Shown: in pieces, positions 181 through 62,976 of the stretch | Numbering within the stretch: position 1 is the first letter of the stretch | Layout of the letters: each line of letters starts with the position of its first letter | NCBI GenBank assembly: GCA_002305795.1 | Contig: DBRF01000006.1 | Span: forward strand, 3,409-67,408 | Source: Ruminococcaceae bacterium UBA1375 | GTDB lineage: Bacteria > Bacillota > Clostridia > Oscillospirales > Ruminococcaceae | Reading direction: 5' to 3' | DNA: 64,000 nt | Notes under the pieces: generated by a model | What the model saw: the letters and a program-made list of their open reading frames with translations, nothing else | What the model was told of the DNA's origin: nothing | The model's database searches: none | Position numbers and translations under genes: made by a program

Positions 181-250
181 AGGAAGGAAGAATGAATAGT
201 GAATCATTCAGGAGGATTCTCCCGTTGGTCGAATCTTCTATTAAAAGGGA
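165..250 (+). repeat. GAATGAA-heptad + hairpin intergenic element, copy a
   Basis: Sequence gaagtgaatcgTGAaggaaggaagaatgaatagtgaatcattcaggAGGATTCtcccgttggtcGAATCTTct. It is a purine-rich GAA/GAATGAA run followed by a 7-bp-stem hairpin. The same element occurs in reverse orientation at 8013-8095 and 20972-21048, and the heptad part at 7797-7845. It begins on the stop codon of the upstream CDS. Confidence 0.7.
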
Positions 251-914: not shown

Positions 915-1213
915 CACAATAGTAAAAAAGCGATGATAAGAGAAAAGAACAGGTGCTCTGTGGGCAGAGAACCGCCGTTTGGTGCAAGGCGGAGACGGGG
1001 GCTTGTTTGGCTGGCTCTTTAGCTGTCCGCTGAACGGGGAGTCCCCTCAGTAGGTGGGAACGGAACGCCCCTCCGTTATCGGGGGTCGGGATTCGCAGAG
1101 TTTCTGCCGATCTTCGGTTGAGTGGACACGAAATCGTGTCAAGAAGAGTGGTACCACGGAGTTTAGCCTTCGTCTCTTTGCAGTTTTGGCTGCAATTAGA
1201 TGAAGGTTTTTTT
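915..1213 (+). promoter_or_regulatory. T-box riboswitch leader (tRNA-Leu inferred) controlling leuACDB
   Basis: There is a GA-motif region agcgatgatAAGAGAaaag near the 5' end and a Stem I distal-loop-like ggtgcaa. The conserved T-box sequence gaGTGGTACCACGGag lies at ~1145-1160. A terminator hairpin follows (ccttcgtc...gatgaagg, then ttttttt, 1166-1213) that can compete with an antiterminator. Amino-acid specificity is inferred from the downstream operon; the specifier codon was not resolved by eye. Confidence 0.85.
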
Positions 1214-7736: not shown

Positions 7737-7796
7737 GTTGATTCCCTCCCCGTACCATGCTATTGTAGCATATTTTCTGCTGTTTTCCTAGGGGGG

Positions 7797-7845
7797 GAAT
7801 TTGAAGAAATAATGAAGAATGAATAGTGAATAATGAATAATTTTG
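7797..7845 (+). repeat. GAATGAA-heptad repeat, copy b
   Basis: Sequence gaagaaataatgaagaatgaatagtgaataatgaataat. GAAGAATGAATAGT (7814-7827) is the perfect inverted partner of ACTATTCATTCTTC (8051-8064). Confidence 0.7.
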
Positions 7846-8012
7846 GTTGAGACCTGCGCTGCGCTTGGTCTCTTCCATTAAAAAAGAAATTGGAACGCAG
7901 TTGCAATCAGAAAAGTTATGCAAAATAGGAAAATTATTCCGATAAAATAAGAAATTTACGGCTTTTATTTCAACTGGCCAAACCACATCCCATCCACAAT
8001 TTTCCTTCTTTT

Positions 8013-8095
8013 CCCAATGGAAGATTCGACCGCAGGGAGAATCAACCTGAACTATTCATTCTTCATTCTTCACTCTTCATTTCTCCTTCTCCTCC
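8013..8095 (-). repeat. GAATGAA-heptad + hairpin element, copy c
   Basis: The reverse complement reads ggagaaaTGAagagtgaagaatgaagaatgaatagttcaggttGATTCtccctgcggtcGAATCttccat. This is the same layout as copy a and again starts on the stop codon (of rarA). Confidence 0.7.
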
Positions 8096-11128: not shown

Positions 11129-11587
11129 TGTCGAAAAAATATTTGCAATCTCCTTGGCAGCTTTTACGCAAATCCCTCACGGATTGCCTGTAATCAGCCT
11201 TCAATAGGGGATGGAAAAGGAATGCCGGGACAAAGGCTTCCCCCAGGGGGGAAGCTGCCGCCGCAGGCGGCTGATGAGGGGGAAAGGGGAATTTTTCACC
11301 GGCAAAAACCGTGACGTACCGCAAAAATTGTCTGCTAAATTTCCCTGAGATGAAATGGGTTCACCCATGCCGCACCTCATCCTTGGCCGCACCGGTTTGC
11401 AGAAAAGCCAAACAGAAGTTAGCCCCATTGCCTTATGGGGAAATTGACAGGAATGTCATTTTTTGCTATAATCAGGCTACGGCGAAAGCCCACCTGCTTC
11501 GGCGGGGGAAGGATAAGGCATTTCAAACGGGAGTGGTTGATCCCCTGTACATCCGTCAAGTTATTTTGCTTGAAGGGAGGGGGTGAG

Positions 11588-11677
11588 ATGACATGGGAAG
11601 ATTTTTTCCTGTTCATCCAGACAGTTTTGTCTGCTCTTCTGGCATATTTTGCTTGGAAGAACAATCGGACAAAATGA
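11588..11677 (+). CDS. small hydrophobic peptide, putative type I toxin, module B
   Basis: ATG 11588 follows the SD gaaGGGAGGGGGtgag. The 29 codons give MTWEDFFLFIQTVLSALLAYFAWKNNRTK. Promoter: TTGACA 11444-11449, 17 nt, TATAAT 11467-11472. Confidence 0.7.
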   Translation: MTWEDFFLFIQTVLSALLAYFAWKNNRTK

Positions 11678-11764
11678 AAACAGCCGCTCGATTTGGCGCT
11701 TGAGCGGCTGTTTTCTTAACAGCTAAATCAAAGGGTCAACCGTTTCCGGTCTTATCCTTTTTCT
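11672..11764 (-). ncRNA. putative antitoxin sRNA convergent to toxin B
   Basis: Minus promoter TTGACA (11799-11794), 17 nt, TATAAT (11776-11771). The transcript reads ..AGAAAAAGGATAAGACCGGAAACGGTTGACCCTTTGA.. and ends at hairpin 11681-11710 (cagccgctcg...cgagcggctg in minus sense) plus ttttcatttt. It overlaps the toxin stop codon. Confidence 0.5.
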
Positions 11765-11855
11765 ATTTCCATTATACTGTTTTTTGGCCCCTCTGTCAAC
11801 CCGGGCAGGGATCTTTTCCAAACCCGGCAGAACCCCGCTCGGATAGCTGTACCCA

Positions 11856-18230: not shown

Positions 18231-18453
18231 AGACTGTAGAAAAAGTAAAATTTAGGTCAAGCCTTTTTAAAGGCTTGTGGGGTTGCAAGGGGCAAAGCCC
18301 CTGCAATGGAAATTATTTGTCCTAAAAATTCTTATTTCTGTCTTATTCTTGCAAAAAAGTTGTGGAAGTGACGAACTTGAATCCGCCCGCCCAACGGCGT
18401 AGAGCCGAGGGCGGGTCAATCTGGAAACATCCGAACCCTTTTTCGACAAGCTG
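18231..18453 (+). repeat. LE-family mosaic element (copy LE-1) in the dnaJ 3' region
   Basis: It starts AGACTGTAGAAAAAGTAAAATTTAGGTCAAGCC and ends CTTTTTCGACAAGCTG. It is collinear with 46023-46292 and flanked by two copies of the hairpin ggaacgtcagg(a/t)aactgacgttcc (18205-18228 and 18455-18478). Confidence 0.8.
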
Positions 18454-18662: not shown

Positions 18663-18952
18663 GGACAGAAAGCGGCGTGGCGCAAACAGTTTCCCTTTAT
18701 AAAACATTCCGGTATCATTTGACAAAAGAGGACTGCATCGGTATAATAAATTTACGGCGCAAGCCTACTCGGGGAAATTCCCCGGGGGAGGATAGAACCT
18801 TGGATTGATGTTCCAATCCATCTGCAACGGCAGCGGTTGACGCCCCTGATTCTCGATTCGCCTTCCGCCGTTTGGCGAGATGAGAAAAGGGGGTGGATAA
18901 TTTCTTGTGATGTCGAAAGAAATACTTCCCTCTTTGGAAAGGGGGAAGTGGT

Positions 18953-19048
18953 ATGAATTACGTTACTTGGCCGGATTTGTTCACATTTTTATTGTTGGCA
19001 ATCACCGCTTTGGACGTGTTTTACAATATTTGGACAAAAAGAAAGTAA
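18953..19048 (+). CDS. small hydrophobic peptide, putative type I toxin, module C (divergent)
   Basis: ATG 18953 follows the SD gaaaGGGGGAAGtggt. The 31 codons give MNYVTWPDLFTFLLLAITALDVFYNIWTKRK. Promoter: TTGACA 18719-18724, 17 nt, TATAAT 18742-18747. The leader is ~200 nt. Confidence 0.6.
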   Translation: MNYVTWPDLFTFLLLAITALDVFYNIWTKRK

Positions 19049-20971: not shown

Positions 20972-21048
20972 CCAATGGAAGATATTTTCCAAAGGAAAAT
21001 ATCAACTATAATTATTCACTATTCATTCTTCATTCTTCACTATTTTAT
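20972..21048 (-). repeat. GAATGAA-heptad + hairpin element, copy d
   Basis: ccaatggaagatattttccaaaggaaaatatcaactataattattcactattcattcttcattcttcact is collinear with 8013-8080. The hairpin arm is replaced by gaagatattttcc/ggaaaatatc. Confidence 0.7.
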
Positions 21049-21114
21049 CAATCCCCGCCCCGTTGACCGGGGCGTTTTTCTCAGATTCCACCCCGGAAAG
21101 GATGTTTCAAATTT

Positions 21115-24807: not shown

Positions 24808-24960
24808 TTAAAGTTTTCGGTCTGAAACAAGTCTTTGGCTAGTTTTGAACAAACCGAAGATTGGGTTCGTTTTTCTTCCCAAGGCTGGCGGGCGAATCCC
24901 ACGCAGTGGATTCGAATCCCACGCTGTGGATTCTATCCCCTGCATAGAAATGATTTTATT
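24808..24960 (+). repeat. LE-family fragment with tandemly duplicated T-arm-like 20-mer
   Basis: It starts cttaaagttttcgg (compare 2970 and 4754) and contains cGAATCCCACGCAGTGGATTcGAATCCCACGCTGTGGATTc (24893-24933). Confidence 0.65.
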
Positions 24961-26078: not shown

Positions 26079-26163
26079 AGAAGGACAAAGCAAAACAGCT
26101 TGTCCCCTGCTATGGTATTAAGTGACCGCTAGCCTGGTACGCAGAGCGGTCACTTCTTTTTTG
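26079..26163 (+). ncRNA. putative antitoxin sRNA convergent to toxin F
   Basis: Promoter TTGACA 26044-26049, 17 nt, TAAAAT 26067-26072. The transcript reads AAAAACAGAAGGACAAAGCAAAACAGCTTGTCCCCTGCTATGG.. and ends at hairpin 26121-26154 (agtgaccgct...agcggtcact) plus tctttttt. Confidence 0.5.
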
Positions 26164-31689: not shown

Positions 31690-31808
31690 GCGGGGGAAAT
31701 TGCGCCGTTGGTGGGGCAGATTCCGGATAGCTGTTTCTATCACTTTATTTCAAATCTGTTTTTAATTCTGTCTAAATATAGAAATTTACATTATAATTTC
31801 GATACAGA

Positions 31809-31924
31809 GACTTTGCCCCTTAGAATCCACTGCGTGGGATTCGACCCCACCATGCCTTCGAAAAACGATCTTCGATCTTATTTTCTAAAAGGCTTGACCT
31901 AAACTTTACTTTTTCAACACTCTA
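31809..31924 (-). repeat. LE-family fragment (5' half, reverse orientation) with T-arm-like submotif
   Basis: The reverse complement reads ctAGAGTGTTGAAAAAGTAAAGTTTAGGTCAAGCCTTTTAG...CGAAGGCATGGTGGGGTCGAATCCCACGCAGTGGATTCTAAGGGGCAAAG, collinear with 46023-46135. Confidence 0.75.
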
Positions 31925-31925
31925 G

Positions 31926-31951
31926 CGGCCTGCTTCCCGGCAGGCCGTTTT
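31926..31951 (+). terminator. intrinsic terminator-like hairpin abutting the LE fragment
   Basis: cggcctgc / gcaggccg stem followed by tttt. Confidence 0.6.
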
Positions 31952-45954: not shown

Positions 45955-46022
45955 ACAAGCTCACTGCTGCTGTTTTGAAATCGCATCTGGAAAGGAAAAA
46001 GGACGCTGGGAGGCGTCCTTTT

Positions 46023-46292
46023 AGACTGTAGAAAAAGTAAAGTTTAGGTCCAGCCTTTTAGGAAATAAAATCGAAGATTTTTTTCCGAAGGCATGGTGGG
46101 GGCGAATCCCACGCAGTGGATTCTAGGGGGCAAAGCCCCTGCAATGGAGATTGTTTTATCCAAAAACTCTTTCTTCTGCCTTATTGTTTGAAAAAAGTTG
46201 TGGAAACAACAAATCGGAATCCGCCCGCCCAACGGCGTAGAGCCGAGGGCGGGTCAATGCGGAAACATCCGAACACTTTTTCGACAAGCTGA
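46023..46292 (+). repeat. LE-family mosaic element (copy LE-2) in the 3' region of the hydro-lyase gene
   Basis: It starts AGACTGTAGAAAAAGTAAAGTTTAGGTCCAGCC and ends CTTTTTCGACAAGCTG. It contains the T-arm-like submotif (46085-46123). It is flanked by two copies of the hairpin aaggacgctgggagg(c/t)gtcctt (45999-46020 and 46293-46314). Confidence 0.8.
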
Positions 46293-46537
46293 AAGGACGC
46301 TGGGAGGTGTCCTTTGAGTTTTGTTTGTTTTGATATTGTTGAATATTTGTTTGAAAAGCCCGGTAAACAGTCCGTGGATTGACATGAAATCTCATTTTTT
46401 GTTATAATACCATCATGGCTTTTGCCTACTGGTATTTACCGGGGCAGAAGGATGAAGCCAATCGATCAATGATCTATAACGGTAGCGGTTTGCCCCTTAC
46501 ATCCGTCAAGTGATTTTGCTTGAAGGGAGGGGGTGGT

Positions 46538-46618
46538 ATGACATGGGAAGAATTTTTCATGTTAGTACAGGCGATTTTGTCTGCGATTCTGGTTTATTAT
46601 GCCCGGAAGAACAAGTAA
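46538..46618 (+). CDS. small hydrophobic peptide, putative type I toxin, module D
   Basis: ATG 46538 follows the SD gaaGGGAGGGGGtggt. The 26 codons give MTWEEFFMLVQAILSAILVYYARKNK. Promoter: TTGACA 46379-46384, 18 nt, TATAAT 46403-46408. Confidence 0.7.
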   Translation: MTWEEFFMLVQAILSAILVYYARKNK

Positions 46619-46710
46619 GACAAAATAGAAGTAACCGCTCAATCGGCACTTAGAGCGGTTACTCGATAACATAGACTCTAGGGGCTAGCCGTTTCCGGCT
46701 TCGTCCTTCT
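46618..46710 (-). ncRNA. putative antitoxin sRNA convergent to toxin D
   Basis: Minus promoter TTGACA (46744-46739), 16 nt, TATAAT (46722-46717). The transcript reads AAAAACAGAAGGACGAAGCCGGAAACGGCTAGCCCCTAGAG.. and ends at hairpin 46631-46662 plus ttctattttg. Confidence 0.5.
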
Positions 46711-46912
46711 GTTTTTATTATACCCATTTTTCCGCATTTGTCAAGGCCGGCTTTTGTCCGGGGAAATCTTAAAATTGCCTTTTTATCCTTGTAAAAGTTC
46801 CCCCAAACCATCTTGCAAAATTTTCCCCTATGCCTTACAATAAGGGTATCATTTGGGGAAGGGGCGCATAGGTAAGCTACCTCTTCCTGCATAACAGGAG
46901 GGAAATCCCGGT

Positions 46913-49902: not shown

Positions 49903-50127
49903 ATGAGCAACTGGGAAAGCTACTGCACCTGTACCGATTTGGCCTGTCCCTGTCACCCCTCCCGGCACCAGCTGGGCTGCACTCCTTGTGTGCGGAAAAA
50001 CTTAAAGCAGGGGGAGATCCCTTCCTGCTTTTTCAAGAAGGTGGACGATACCGGCAAGCCGGAAGCCTATTTCTTTGAAAACTTTGCCGATTGGGTGAAG
50101 GAGCATGGGGAAAAAGGCCGGGGTTGA
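49903..50127 (+). CDS. small cysteine-rich protein (7 Cys, 2 His in the first 45 aa), unknown function
   Basis: 74 aa: MSNWESYCTCTDLACPCHPSRHQLGCTPCVRKNLKQGEIPSCFF... The CxC-x4-CxC...GCxxC...C pattern resembles small DUF-type metal-binding proteins of Clostridia (recalled, uncertain). Confidence 0.55.
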   Translation: MSNWESYCTCTDLACPCHPSRHQLGCTPCVRKNLKQGEIPSCFFKKVDDTGKPEAYFFENFADWVKEHGEKGRG

Positions 50128-50238
50128 CAAATCCGCCAAAACCCGGTATTCTAGAATCACAAATCAGACAGCCGCCTTTTTTGCATCCAGCGGCTGTTTT
50201 CTTTTTCTGCCAATCTTATCAACGGAAGGTGAAACCCC

Positions 50239-54672: not shown

Positions 54673-54739
54673 CTTCCTCTTTCCTGCTTTTACTTTCGGT
54701 ATCCTTGACAAAACAGCAGAAAAAGGATATAATAAAAGA

Positions 54740-54823
54740 AAAGGACGAAACCGGAAACGGTTGGCCCTTGGAAACAGTTTTTAAGTAACCGCTTCTGTGG
54801 CTGGGAGCGGTTACTTCTTTTTA
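54740..54823 (+). ncRNA. putative antitoxin sRNA convergent to toxin E
   Basis: Promoter TTGACA 54705-54710, 17 nt, TATAAT 54728-54733. The transcript reads AAAAGAAAAGGACGAAACCGGAAACGGTTGGCCCTTGGAAAC.. and ends at hairpin 54783-54816 (aagtaaccgc...gcggttactt) plus cttttt. Confidence 0.5.
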
Positions 54824-54909
54824 TGAGTTAGAATTTCGTAGAGAAATTTTGCAATGGATACAACTACTGCCAACAGGGCAATCAGATGCTCCCATGTAAA
54901 AGGTCCCAA
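54811..54909 (-). CDS. small hydrophobic peptide, putative type I toxin, module E (divergent)
   Basis: TTG at 54909 follows the SD gaaaGGGGGAAGaaaa. The 32 codons give (M)GPFTWEHLIALLAVVVSIAKFLYEILTHKKK. Minus promoter: TTGACA (55122-55117), 17 nt, TACAAT (55099-55094). Confidence 0.55.
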   Translation of the reverse strand: MGPFTWEHLIALLAVVVSIAKFLYEILTHKKK

Positions 54910-55279
54910 TTTTCTTCCCCCTTTCCAAAAGAGGGAAAACATCCATTCATAATTAGAAGTTGCTCACCTCTTTCCAAAAACTTGCGTTAAAACGCAGCAT
55001 AAATTTGGGTAAATGAGAAGAGCCAACCGCTTACCGTTTTGTTTCGTCCTTCCCCTGAAGAAATATCTTCAAGTAGACTTGCGTCGTGGCTTTATTGTAG
55101 CATGGTTCCTGTTTTCTGTCAATTTGAATTTGAAAGTAAAAAAGGATGCCTTCTCTTTACCTCCCTTTTACCCCGAAAAAACCATGATTTTCCTTGCGTC
55201 TCACCCTCTGCAGTGTTATAATGGTACAGTGAACGATTGTTGATTTTTGCCATACAAACGGGAGAGAGGAGAATCACAG

Positions 55280-61824: not shown

Positions 61825-62106
61825 GGAGGTTGTGGAAAAAGGATTCGGTATGTTCGAAACAAGCCTTCGGCATGTTTCCGGATTGACCTGCCCTTGGCTT
61901 TACGCCATTGGGCAGGCGGATTCCGTTATACTATGCCACTTACTATGCTACATGGATGCACTGCCACGGACCCTTATAATAGACTCCGTATTGTTTGCGG
62001 GGCTTTGCCCCAGAATCCACTGTGTGGGATTCGACCCCACCATGCCTTCGGAAAAAAAGATTTTCAATCTTGTTTTCCTAAAAGGCTGGACCTAAACTTT
62101 ACGTTT
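61825..62106 (-). repeat. LE-family mosaic element (copy LE-3) between the rfbD stop codon and its terminator
   Basis: The minus strand reads gagCTGTAAaaacGTAAAGTTTAGGTCCAGCCTTTTAGG...CCGAAGGCATGGTGGGGTCGAATCCCACACAGTGGATTC...GGAATCCGCCTGCCCAATGGCGTAAAGCCAAGGGCAGGTCAATCCGGAAACAT...CTTTTTCCACAACCTC. It is collinear with LE-2. Confidence 0.8.
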
Positions 62107-62976
62107 TTACAGCTCTACCGGGTGATATTCCCCTACGTTTTTCAAGAACCGGGTCAGGGCGTCCTGCCAGGCAGGCAGGCGGTGGAATCCGGCCTGTTCC
62201 AGCTTGTCCTTGCTCATCCGGGAGTTTTTGGGGCGCACCGCCTTGGAAGCGCCGTACTCCTCGCTGGTCACCGGCTTGACGGTGACCTTTTTCCCGGCCT
62301 GGCGGAAGATCTCCACCGCAAAGTCGTACCAGCTGCACAGACCTTCGTTGGTGACGTGGTAGGTGCCGTACTGCTCGGTGCGGATCATCTCACACACCAG
62401 CTTGGCCACGTCGGGGCAGTAGGTGGGGGAACCAATCTGGTCGTTGACCACCGTTAAGGTGTCGTGGGTTTCACTCAGCCGCAGCATGGTGCGGATAAAG
62501 TTGTGGCCGTGGTCGGCAAACACCCAGCTGATCCGCAGGGTGAAGTACTTGGTAAGCAGCTCCTTCACTGCCTGTTCCCCTTCCAGCTTGGTAAGGCCGT
62601 AGAAGTTGCTGGGGCCGGTGGCGTCATCCTCCACATAGGGGGTGGTGCCGGTGCCGGGGAAGACGTAGTCGGTGGAGAAGTACATGAACTTGGCGTCCAG
62701 CTCTTTGGCGCACTGGGCCATGTTCCGGGTGCCCTCCACGTTTACTTTCCGGCAAACCTCCCGGCCTTCGTCCTCCGCCTTGTCCACGGCGGTGTAGGCG
62801 GCGCAGTGGACGATGACGTCCGGGGCATAGCCCAGCACTGCCTGTCGCACCGCTTTTTCATCGGTGAGGTCGAAGTCGTCGATGTCTACTCCCCAACAGG
62901 GGACGTTTTGTGCTTCCAGACAGGCGACCACATCGCCGCCCAGCTGTCCTTTCACGCCGGTGACTAATACTTTCAT
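62107..62976 (-). CDS. rfbD: dTDP-4-dehydrorhamnose reductase
   Basis: 289 aa with MKVLVTGVKGQLG and YGLTKLEGE (YxxxK). Confidence 0.92.
   Translation of the reverse strand: MKVLVTGVKGQLGGDVVACLEAQNVPCWGVDIDDFDLTDEKAVRQAVLGYAPDVIVHCAAYTAVDKAEDEGREVCRKVNVEGTRNMAQCAKELDAKFMYFSTDYVFPGTGTTPYVEDDATGPSNFYGLTKLEGEQAVKELLTKYFTLRISWVFADHGHNFIRTMLRLSETHDTLTVVNDQIGSPTYCPDVAKLVCEMIRTEQYGTYHVTNEGLCSWYDFAVEIFRQAGKKVTVKPVTSEEYGASKAVRPKNSRMSKDKLEQAGFHRLPAWQDALTRFLKNVGEYHPVEL

Follow-up and report, generated by a model that had tools for sequence, protein, structure and literature searches.

The window analysed here, a 64,000-nucleotide (nt) stretch of contig DBRF01000006.1 from Ruminococcaceae bacterium UBA1375, contains at positions 11444-11799 a promoter-to-promoter unit, module B, composed of a promoter, a leader, a short open reading frame (ORF), a hairpin terminator and a convergent small RNA (sRNA). 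We propose, at a probability of about 0.5, that module B belongs to an undescribed type I toxin-antitoxin-like family of Oscillospiraceae and related Clostridia, which would act through the 3' overlap of its two RNAs while the toxin messenger RNA (mRNA) sequesters its own Shine-Dalgarno (SD) sequence. Some generic traits of type I systems are present: an ORF for a hydrophobic peptide with its own promoter and SD, a convergent promoter matching the consensus in 12 of 12 positions, conserved matches to an sRNA model and a predicted duplex of 48-52 base pairs (bp). Six modules of this architecture (A to F) lie in the window. Genomes and metagenomes were scanned with a pattern and then searched with covariance models (E about 1e-7 or lower with the sRNA model R1), which yielded more than 20 further modules outside it, from Oscillospiraceae, Acutalibacteraceae, 'Ca. 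Merdivicinus', one Lachnospiraceae metagenome-assembled genome and gut metagenome contigs. The sRNA's 5' hairpin and a hairpin within the leader of the toxin are true paralogues. The architecture, its conservation, this paralogy, the co-variation of the two hairpins and the predicted folds and duplexes are given below as results of computation.

Layout of module B

Two covariance models are used throughout: R1 describes the sRNA, and R2, run unfiltered across the whole window, describes the sRNA 5' hairpins only (20 sequences). The parts of module B are as follows.

11444-11472, + strand: toxin mRNA promoter, TTGACA, 17 nt, TATAAT, with TG before the -10 hexamer; sigma-70 consensus match 12/12
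11481-11506, + strand: 5' hairpins of the leader, hp1 GGC-GAAA-GCC and hp2 CCUGC-UUCG-GCGGG; from sequence and folds
11505-11548, + strand: leader copy of the shared hairpin, with GAAGGAUAAG box (11508-11517), AACGGGAGUGGUUGA and C-run (11542-11545); from same-sense alignment to the sRNA
11575-11583, + strand: SD, G-rich GGGAGGGGG, with the ATG (11588) 4 nt downstream; from sequence
11588-11677, + strand: toxin-like ORF, MTWEDFFLFIQTVLSALLAYFAWKNNRTK, 29 amino acids (aa), one hydrophobic helix and a basic C-terminus; from ORF calls and hydrophobicity
11676-11715, no strand assigned: shared hairpin terminator, 14-bp perfect stem and 12-nt loop; arms 11676-11689 and 11702-11715, 100% complementary
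11670-11763, - strand: convergent sRNA, putative antitoxin, ~94 nt, with 5' hairpin, spacer and terminator; R1 69.7 bits, E = 6e-15
11728-11763, - strand: sRNA 5' hairpin, AAAGG/CCUUU around ACCG-GAAA-CGGU, C-run 11733-11735; R2 36.5 bits, minimum free energy (MFE) fold and pair counts
11771-11799, - strand: sRNA promoter, TTGACA, 17 nt, TATAAT; sigma-70 consensus match 12/12

Promoters homologous to the toxin promoter of B stand before modules A, C, D and E. The leader of B is ~109 nt long. Its hairpins hp1 and hp2 vary in sequence between modules with their pairing kept, as in GAC-GCAA-GUC in E and GAUACAA...UUGUAUC in the homologous module L109. The leader string quoted in an earlier note on this DNA is present, as are the capped sRNA hairpins listed there: ACCG-GAAA-CGGU in B and E, GCCG-GAAA-CGGC in D, GAACCG-ACAA-CGGUUC in C and AAGC-AAAACA-GCUU in F. 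The SD of B is predicted to be mostly paired (P(unpaired) = 0.19). The terminator carries a U-run on both strands, and the stop codon of the ORF lies at the 5' foot of the hairpin. About 50 nt of the sRNA are perfectly complementary to the 3' end of the toxin mRNA, and co-folding of the two RNAs gives 52 intermolecular bp with a free-energy difference (ddG) of -43.7 kcal/mol.

Window 11791-11820 (+) holds a terminator-like hairpin (11791-11810) with a U-run on the toxin strand, which overlaps the -35 of the sRNA promoter. It would halt toxin transcripts that read past the shared hairpin, and no counterpart was seen on reading the other five modules of the window.

The 3' overlap and the toxin leader

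The earlier note had proposed that sRNA and mRNA are perfectly complementary across the shared terminator, which is what we find. It had also placed the last codons of the ORF within this overlap in B, C, D and E; they are covered in B, C and E, and also in F, whereas D is marginal and A has no such coverage. When all six pairs are co-folded, the MFE structure contains the 3' duplex alone, with ddG from -44 to -57 kcal/mol, and in these models the 3' overlap is the only strongly favourable contact between the two RNAs. Across 13 sRNAs the terminator stem covaries, with 7 of 11 pairs changed on both sides, and the terminator loop is the most module-specific segment of the overlap. On the sRNA side, the terminators of the six window modules always have a U-run, with 5-6 T in 8 nt.

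This arrangement suggests the following course of events. The strong toxin promoter would give an mRNA of ~240 nt whose 5' end is capped by the two small hairpins and whose SD is held in an intramolecular helix between C-rich and G-rich segments. With the SD sequestered in cis, the toxin message would therefore be translationally off by default. The strong convergent promoter would give an sRNA of ~90 nt that ends at the same hairpin terminator and so would be perfectly complementary to the mRNA over ~35-52 nt, comprising the stem, the module-specific loop and, mostly, the last Lys codons and the stop. The 3' overlap would be the working antisense contact, in which a loop-loop contact extends into a duplex, after which the toxin mRNA would be cleaved or would decay and its fold might also be affected. 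Binding of SR4 at the 3' end of bsrG also alters the fold around the bsrG SD. As a rule, Gram-positive type I systems have their antisense RNA at the 3' side, in partial overlap with the mRNA (PMC8594479), and in C. difficile the duplexes of overlapping convergent transcripts are cut by RNase III (PMC5961336).

Self-sequestration of the SD is a general prediction for the family. In 22 leaders the SD core is mostly paired, with P(unpaired) at or below 0.07 in 12 and at or below 0.40 in all 22. The earlier note had described a switch in which the leader C-run pairs either with the SD or with an upstream G-run, and part of this survives. In short leaders the C-run pairs with the SD, with probabilities of 0.33-0.52 in A, D and F and 0.41-0.91 in the homologues L055_5699, L081 and L096. 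In the ensemble of B it pairs with the upstream G-run (probability 0.78), and the SD pairs with the hp2 region and not with the C-run. The description fails for the long leaders of C and E. In these, as in L115 and others, a local anti-SD of its own takes up the real SD, and the partner of the shared C-run is an SD-like box that lies upstream. The proposed switch is therefore plausible for some modules, as far as the folding models go. The spacing of 40-120 nt given for the distance from C-run to SD is not what is found in A and B, where it measures 23-28 nt.

The upstream SD-like box of the long leaders, AAGGGGGUG, is seen pairing with the shared C-run in C (window 18880-18955), E (54907-54990), L115, L125, L020, L108 and L109, and a separate local hairpin, CUUCCCUCUUU/AAAGGGGGAAG, holds the real SD in these long-leader modules. 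Some of them appear to have a short upstream ORF that overlaps the toxin start in another frame. We also considered whether the leader motif AGCGGUU, which equals the 3' arm of the terminator, might serve as an anti-terminator; the idea was dropped, as the sequences give no sign of co-variation of motif and terminator between modules.

The toxin-like peptides

The ORFs of the modules encode 25-32 aa with a Kyte-Doolittle mean of 2.0-2.75 over 15 aa and a basic C-terminus, which is a Lys run in most. Orthologous pairs within the family differ by 28 synonymous and 32 non-synonymous codon changes, a synonymous excess. Judged by their sequences, the ORFs look coding and toxin-like. Pfam and NCBIfam contain no family for these peptides beyond a sub-threshold resemblance to Hol_Tox. 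Scanned against Pfam at E up to 0.1, 15 family peptides gave only Hol_Tox (two peptides) and Asp-B-Hydro_N (one), and the same two families were obtained with the six window peptides at E up to 10. The best Hol_Tox (PF16935) score, 17.6 bits with E = 0.0036 for the peptide of F, is below the gathering score of 23.3 bits and is a resemblance only. No Fst-family match was reported in these scans of 15 family and six window peptides. Two of eight peptides were found by exact look-up in public data, without functional names, and the peptides are almost never called as genes.

The Lys codons and the stop (AAAAAGAAGTAA) stand at the foot of the terminator, for example at window 19037-19048, 26150-26161 and 54811-54822. 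As read from the sequences of all modules, the antisense of the C-terminal Lys codons is the U-run that terminates the sRNA. The basic tail of the peptide would in this way be tied to the termination signal of the sRNA, a single stretch with two apparent functions.

Paralogy of leader and sRNA

The hairpin shared by the two RNAs consists of a GAAGGA box, a short stem and the C-run, and its loop is larger in the leader than in the sRNA. The genes of leader and sRNA are inverted repeats in the DNA, which gives the two RNAs common sequence in the same sense. The earlier note had described each module as an imperfect inverted repeat that includes the promoter. Repeats of 14-25 nt with 75-93% complementarity do link leader and sRNA gene, but the promoter spacers lie outside the repeat and only the two hexamers match. 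The repeats of leader and sRNA gene are as follows.

Module A: 14 nt, 93% complementarity
Module B: 16 nt, 75% complementarity (11528-11543 and 11733-11748)
Module D: 15 nt, 93%, and 18 nt, 78% complementarity
Module E: 25 nt, 80% complementarity
Module F: 17 nt, 88% complementarity

The same note had called the sRNA a 5'-truncated paralogue of the leader. Alignment, permutation and the R2 search all identify the sRNA 5' domain as a same-sense copy of an internal leader hairpin. Truncation, on the other hand, describes only modules of the window type, whose sRNAs lack hp1 and hp2; in the subfamily of L081, L055 and L114 the leader itself is without the hp1/hp2 extension, and both RNAs begin with identical sequence.

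In same-sense local alignments, the 5' 45 nt of the sRNAs match their own leaders at z = 2-6 relative to shuffled sequences. Scores average 36 with cognate leaders, 27.7 with non-cognate ones and 23 in the antisense control. When the pairing of leaders and sRNAs was permuted among 19 non-redundant modules, the observed total was reached in 0 of 20000 permutations. This result holds without the universally conserved CAGAAGGA box, whose conservation among the homologues is a matter of ascertainment because they were gathered through the sRNA promoter and the box. The cognate excess is also present in the six window modules alone (exact p = 0.0028) and within one subfamily (p = 0.0015). R2, a model of sRNA hairpins, finds leaders on the toxin strand, ranked after the sRNAs, in A (424-468, E = 0.002) and F (26332-26290, E = 0.003). 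Weaker matches are those to the leaders of D, B and E (E = 1.7 for B). These leader matches align as the same two stems around a bigger loop insert. Orthologous modules, as we read their sequences, also differ concordantly in both RNAs: UAGAACC in C corresponds to YGAAACC in L115, GCUUG in F to GUUUG in L123, and GCAGCC to GCGGCC within the L081 group.

In our reading, the paralogy comes from inverted duplication of the transcribed, promoter-proximal segment. Since the leader and sRNA copies split before the modules diverged, simple descent predicts no cognate excess, and the two copies either evolve in concert or are co-selected. Candidate causes of the likeness within modules are patchy concerted evolution at the DNA level together with cassette recombination at the conserved box, or a constraint at the RNA level.

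Alternative explanations

The inverted repeat could be a feature of the DNA with no RNA-RNA role, its arms held alike by template switching or gene conversion between inverted repeats or through being the ends of a recombining cassette. We regard this explanation as rather unlikely. Modules D and L125, and likewise A (361-733) and L118_7529, share their flanks, both promoters, hp1/hp2 and the CAGAAGGAYGAA box, while their inner cassettes differ in the hairpin stem, ORF, terminator and sRNA body. Therefore recombination at the conserved boxes happens, and the sequences indicate an exchange of cassettes between paralogous modules with junctions at these boxes. L115 and L117 share the ORF and sRNA and differ in the 5' parts of their leaders. 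Also in its favour, the positions that agree between leader and sRNA include, on reading the alignment, unpaired nucleotides, and pairing energies show no specificity. Cassette recombination does not, however, by itself make the two ends of a module alike. The tracts of identity are ~8-15 nt long and are broken by leader-specific insertions that are never homogenised, the promoter spacers differ, and no target-site duplication was seen on reading the module ends. A variant in which the repeats would, rarely, bound a segment whose inversion exchanges the promoter in front of the toxin was rejected, as a flipped inner segment occurs in 0 of ~35 loci found via the sRNA promoter and box.

A second explanation goes back to the earlier note. 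The sRNA C-run, which duplicates the anti-SD of the leader, would bind the toxin SD in trans, either following 3' pairing or in its place, and block ribosome loading in the style of SprA1AS and SprA2AS. Cis-encoded antitoxins that act through a non-overlapping 5' end provide a precedent (PMC6393315), and the homologous leader C-run is the predicted cis anti-SD in short-leader modules. The C-run and SD are complementary over 7-9 bp in A, F and L081, with G:C-rich matches of 5-9 bp in some modules. Their duplexes reach -21.6 kcal/mol in A, -19.2 in L081 and -18.1 in F, B has the match CCCUUUGA/UUGAAGGG, and the SD region ranks with the best sites for duplexes of the 5' domain outside the overlap in A, D and F. 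A run of at least three C is found in 23 of 31 distinct sRNA 5' domains.

Against this stands the fold of the sRNA. The C-run had been supposed to be free, yet in the MFE folds of six of six sRNAs it pairs with the GG of the sRNA's own GAAGGA box. RNAalifold missed this 5' hairpin on the full sRNA alignment because of alignment gaps, and the structure was set by hand and checked by pair counts: columns 7-34 form an unchanged G:C pair in 20 of 20 sRNAs, and at columns 8-33 18 sRNAs have G:C and two have another standard pair. The sequences that take the place of a lost C-run (UCCUU against AAGGA in L096, CCUCCUC in L118b) can, as we read them, still pair with the box. The earlier note had named beforehand the absence of a favourable sRNA-SD contact beyond the overlap as the result that would tell against it, and the MFE structures of all co-folds contain zero sRNA-SD pairs. 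After opening of both RNAs, the best sRNA-SD duplexes cost a net +7 to +17 kcal/mol. They have no cognate preference (-13.1 vs -13.2 kcal/mol, p = 0.57, 18 modules) and are weak, at -6 to -9, in L096, L123, L115, L108 and L109. The SD is moreover already sequestered in cis, the shared C-run of long-leader modules does not address the real SD, and the co-variation of the stem beside the C-run is left unexplained. The models thus leave a trans anti-SD role of the C-run unsupported, and we consider it improbable; in them its main role is to close its own hairpin against the GAAGGA box.

In a third explanation, the antitoxin RNA is a co-evolving mimic of the leader's switch hairpin, which competes with or replaces the cis element by occupying the G-rich arm or the SD, besides or instead of antisense pairing, and whose stem gives each module a private antitoxin. 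This broad form is doubtful, with the odds well against it. A narrower form, which we hold to be very improbable, has the 3' arm of the sRNA hairpin compete with the leader's anti-SD arm for the G-rich 5' arm (GGGG/GAAGGA and stem), so that the cis C-run is pushed onto the SD. It could also proceed as strand exchange between the two hairpins, and the module-specific stems would give specificity among the six paralogues. Consistent with such competition, both arms are concordant within a module, the changes between the orthologues C/L115 and F/L123 appear in both RNAs when their sequences are read, and the C-run of B favours the upstream G-run in the ensemble. The lack of homogenisation in promoter spacers and loops speaks against simple gene conversion. 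Several points weigh against the competition. Cross-arm duplexes lack a cognate advantage (-11.9 vs -11.5, p = 0.23; -10.6 vs -11.0), the intermolecular helices would be isoenergetic with the two hairpins that they replace, much of the concordant sequence is in unpaired positions of the alignment, and the SD is predicted to be off unaided. The ACAGAAGGAU box resembles a CsrA site, an idea that was set aside, as such a site would not explain module-specific co-variation.

We return to the reading of module B as a type I system acting through its 3' overlap, against which several points weigh. It assigns no function to the module-specific likeness of the two hairpins. On the toxin side, A and B have a U-run and C, D, E and F lack one, so that the mRNA 3' ends and the extent of the overlap are predictions. 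If the mRNA stops at the hairpin, the overlap of ~35-52 nt is short compared to those of characterised 3'-overlap systems, which measure 131-283 nt in C. difficile (PMC5961336). The energy models ignore co-transcriptional folding and kinetics, proteins and RNA processing. We infer the toxicity of the peptide, the antitoxin function of the sRNA, the transcript ends and the order of pairing. Finally, par and SprA1/SprA2 have short terminator overlaps and their decisive contact lies outside them (PMC7472228, PMC6393315, PMC8594479), and therefore a role for the 5' domain stays plausible.

Other copies and neighbouring elements

The other modules of the window are as follows.

361-733, + strand: module A, toxin MTWEQFFMVIQTVLSALLVYYSRKK, with M at the GTG start; sRNA hairpin with an expanded loop
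18719-19160, + strand: module C, long leader (~200 nt), extra SD-like box and local anti-SD hairpin
46379-46744, + strand: module D
54705-55122, - strand: module E, long leader
26044-~26400, - strand: module F, toxin promoter weak or uncertain (TGcTATCAT, no clear -35)

The RNAs of the modules are better conserved than their peptides. Metagenome contig PPYE01432584.1 is identical to the window across module D. Matches to the sRNA pattern in viral contigs were all discarded as chance, as were most of 93 genome matches, which come from AT-rich genomes. BLAST against plasmids and phages gave no match to the module. At gathering thresholds, a T-box was the sole Rfam match in the whole 64 kb, with no antitoxin or leader family, and nothing relevant was obtained at E up to 10 in window 11400-11850.

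Orphan sRNA genes are seen at L055 2511-2608, L074/L095 and L118 1016-1109, where the promoter, 5' hairpin and terminator are intact and the opposing toxin ORF is truncated or gone. To judge from these sequences, the antitoxin-like RNA outlasts the toxin at such loci. The orphan of L055 directly adjoins a tRNA gene cluster. At window 50125-50207 (+), a promoter-like TTGACA is followed by ~45 nt and a hairpin terminator, CAGCCGCC...GCGGCTGTTTTCTTTTTC, which resembles the 3' half of the sRNA (R1 20.8 bits); there is no 5' hairpin and no opposing ORF. This element is possibly a degenerate module, or else a small transcript of unrelated origin.

The T-box leader (RF00230, 93.5 bits) lies at window 924-1180 (+), ~190 nt downstream of module A. 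AT-rich repeats of GAATGAATAGTGAAT-like units occur in both orientations at window 183-242, 7791-7850, 8016-8093 and 21001-21061, and one repeat of this type precedes module A by ~120 nt. A repeat element of ~295 bp (window 45998-46318) lies immediately before module D, with related copies at 18231-18453, 24890-24935, 31805-31941 and 61872-62121 and with no match in Rfam. The terminator hairpin AAAGGACGCTGGGAGGYGTCCTTT is duplicated, one copy on each side of this repeat, and the equivalent locus in another sample (L125) has one hairpin and no insert. The element looks like a miniature inverted-repeat transposable element that inserts at a terminator.

Comparison with known systems

Annotation pipelines miss this dense family, which has six copies in 64 kb of an uncultured gut Oscillospiraceae genome, and the two covariance models, R1 and R2, can now find its modules. 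Were the plain 3'-overlap reading true, it would be one more type I family of that kind. A DNA-level cause of the co-variation would document concerted evolution and cassette exchange in toxin-antitoxin modules, and an RNA-level cause would reveal a route to antitoxin specificity that is new. If the sRNA is a mimic of the leader hairpin, the logic of a type I system would rest on sequence identity and not on complementarity. A described family whose antitoxin copies the toxin leader was found neither in Rfam nor in the literature searched, which is absence of evidence only.

A close parallel in layout is par (Fst, RNA I/RNA II) of Enterococcus and other Firmicutes. It has convergent promoters and a shared terminator whose complementary stem-loops provide the contact, intramolecular sequestration of the SD together with a 5' helix on the toxin mRNA, and a small hydrophobic toxin with a charged C-terminus, and it occurs in multiple and chromosomal copies (PMC7472228). 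In par, the direct repeats DRa and DRb make the 5' ends complementary over the toxin initiation region, whereas the repeats here are inverted and place the same sequence in both RNAs. Complementarity of the par type was looked for and rejected, as antisense alignment of sRNA 5' domain and leader stays at background (23.3 cognate vs 21.8 non-cognate). The family also differs from par in having no match to the Fst family among the Pfam families reported and none in Rfam. Leader/antitoxin paralogy with module-specific co-variation thus mirrors the par design with inverted for direct repeats, a puzzle that can be put to the test.

SprA1/SprA1AS and SprA2/SprA2AS of Staphylococcus aureus likewise have a cis-encoded antitoxin on the 3' side with a short overlap, and there the non-overlapping 5' domain blocks initiation in trans, the mechanism first suggested for module B (PMC6393315, PMC8594479). 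In our modules, no favourable or module-specific pairing of 5' domain and SD is predicted, and the 5' domain repeats the leader in the same sense and does not complement it. Convergent transcripts with overlapping 3' ends are also found in txpA/RatA, bsrG/SR4, bsrE/SR5 and yonT/SR6 of B. subtilis and in CD2517.1/RCd8 and CD2907.1/RCd9 of C. difficile. There, antisense action is believed to rely on the overlap and on decay by RNases, and the toxins are small membrane peptides that end in a Lys-rich stretch (PMC8594479, PMC5961336, PMC5848175). The present family differs from these in showing no similarity to them by sequence or covariance model, and none of them is described with an antitoxin that copies the leader.

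The hok/sok system (tac/fbi, mok) has a toxin mRNA that is off by default with its SD sequestered, as is predicted for our modules, and the upstream SD-like box and short overlapping upstream ORF of some long-leader modules recall mok. A further likeness would arise if the mRNA reads through the terminator, as its 3' untranslated region, the antisense of the sRNA gene, would then be complementary to its own leader hairpin. The substitutions are divided into 12 that tolerate G:U pairing and 14 of the opposite class, and duplexes of leader and 3' end, for which the 3' ends are predicted, score -18.8 for cognate pairs vs -17.8 (p = 0.08). With no G:U bias and no significant cognate pairing, this fold-back of the leader is not supported. 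The antisense RNA differs from that of hok/sok in lying on the 3' side and not on the 5' side. The family follows the usual plan of Gram-positive type I systems, and its unusual feature, which is statistically solid, is the co-varying paralogy of leader and antitoxin.

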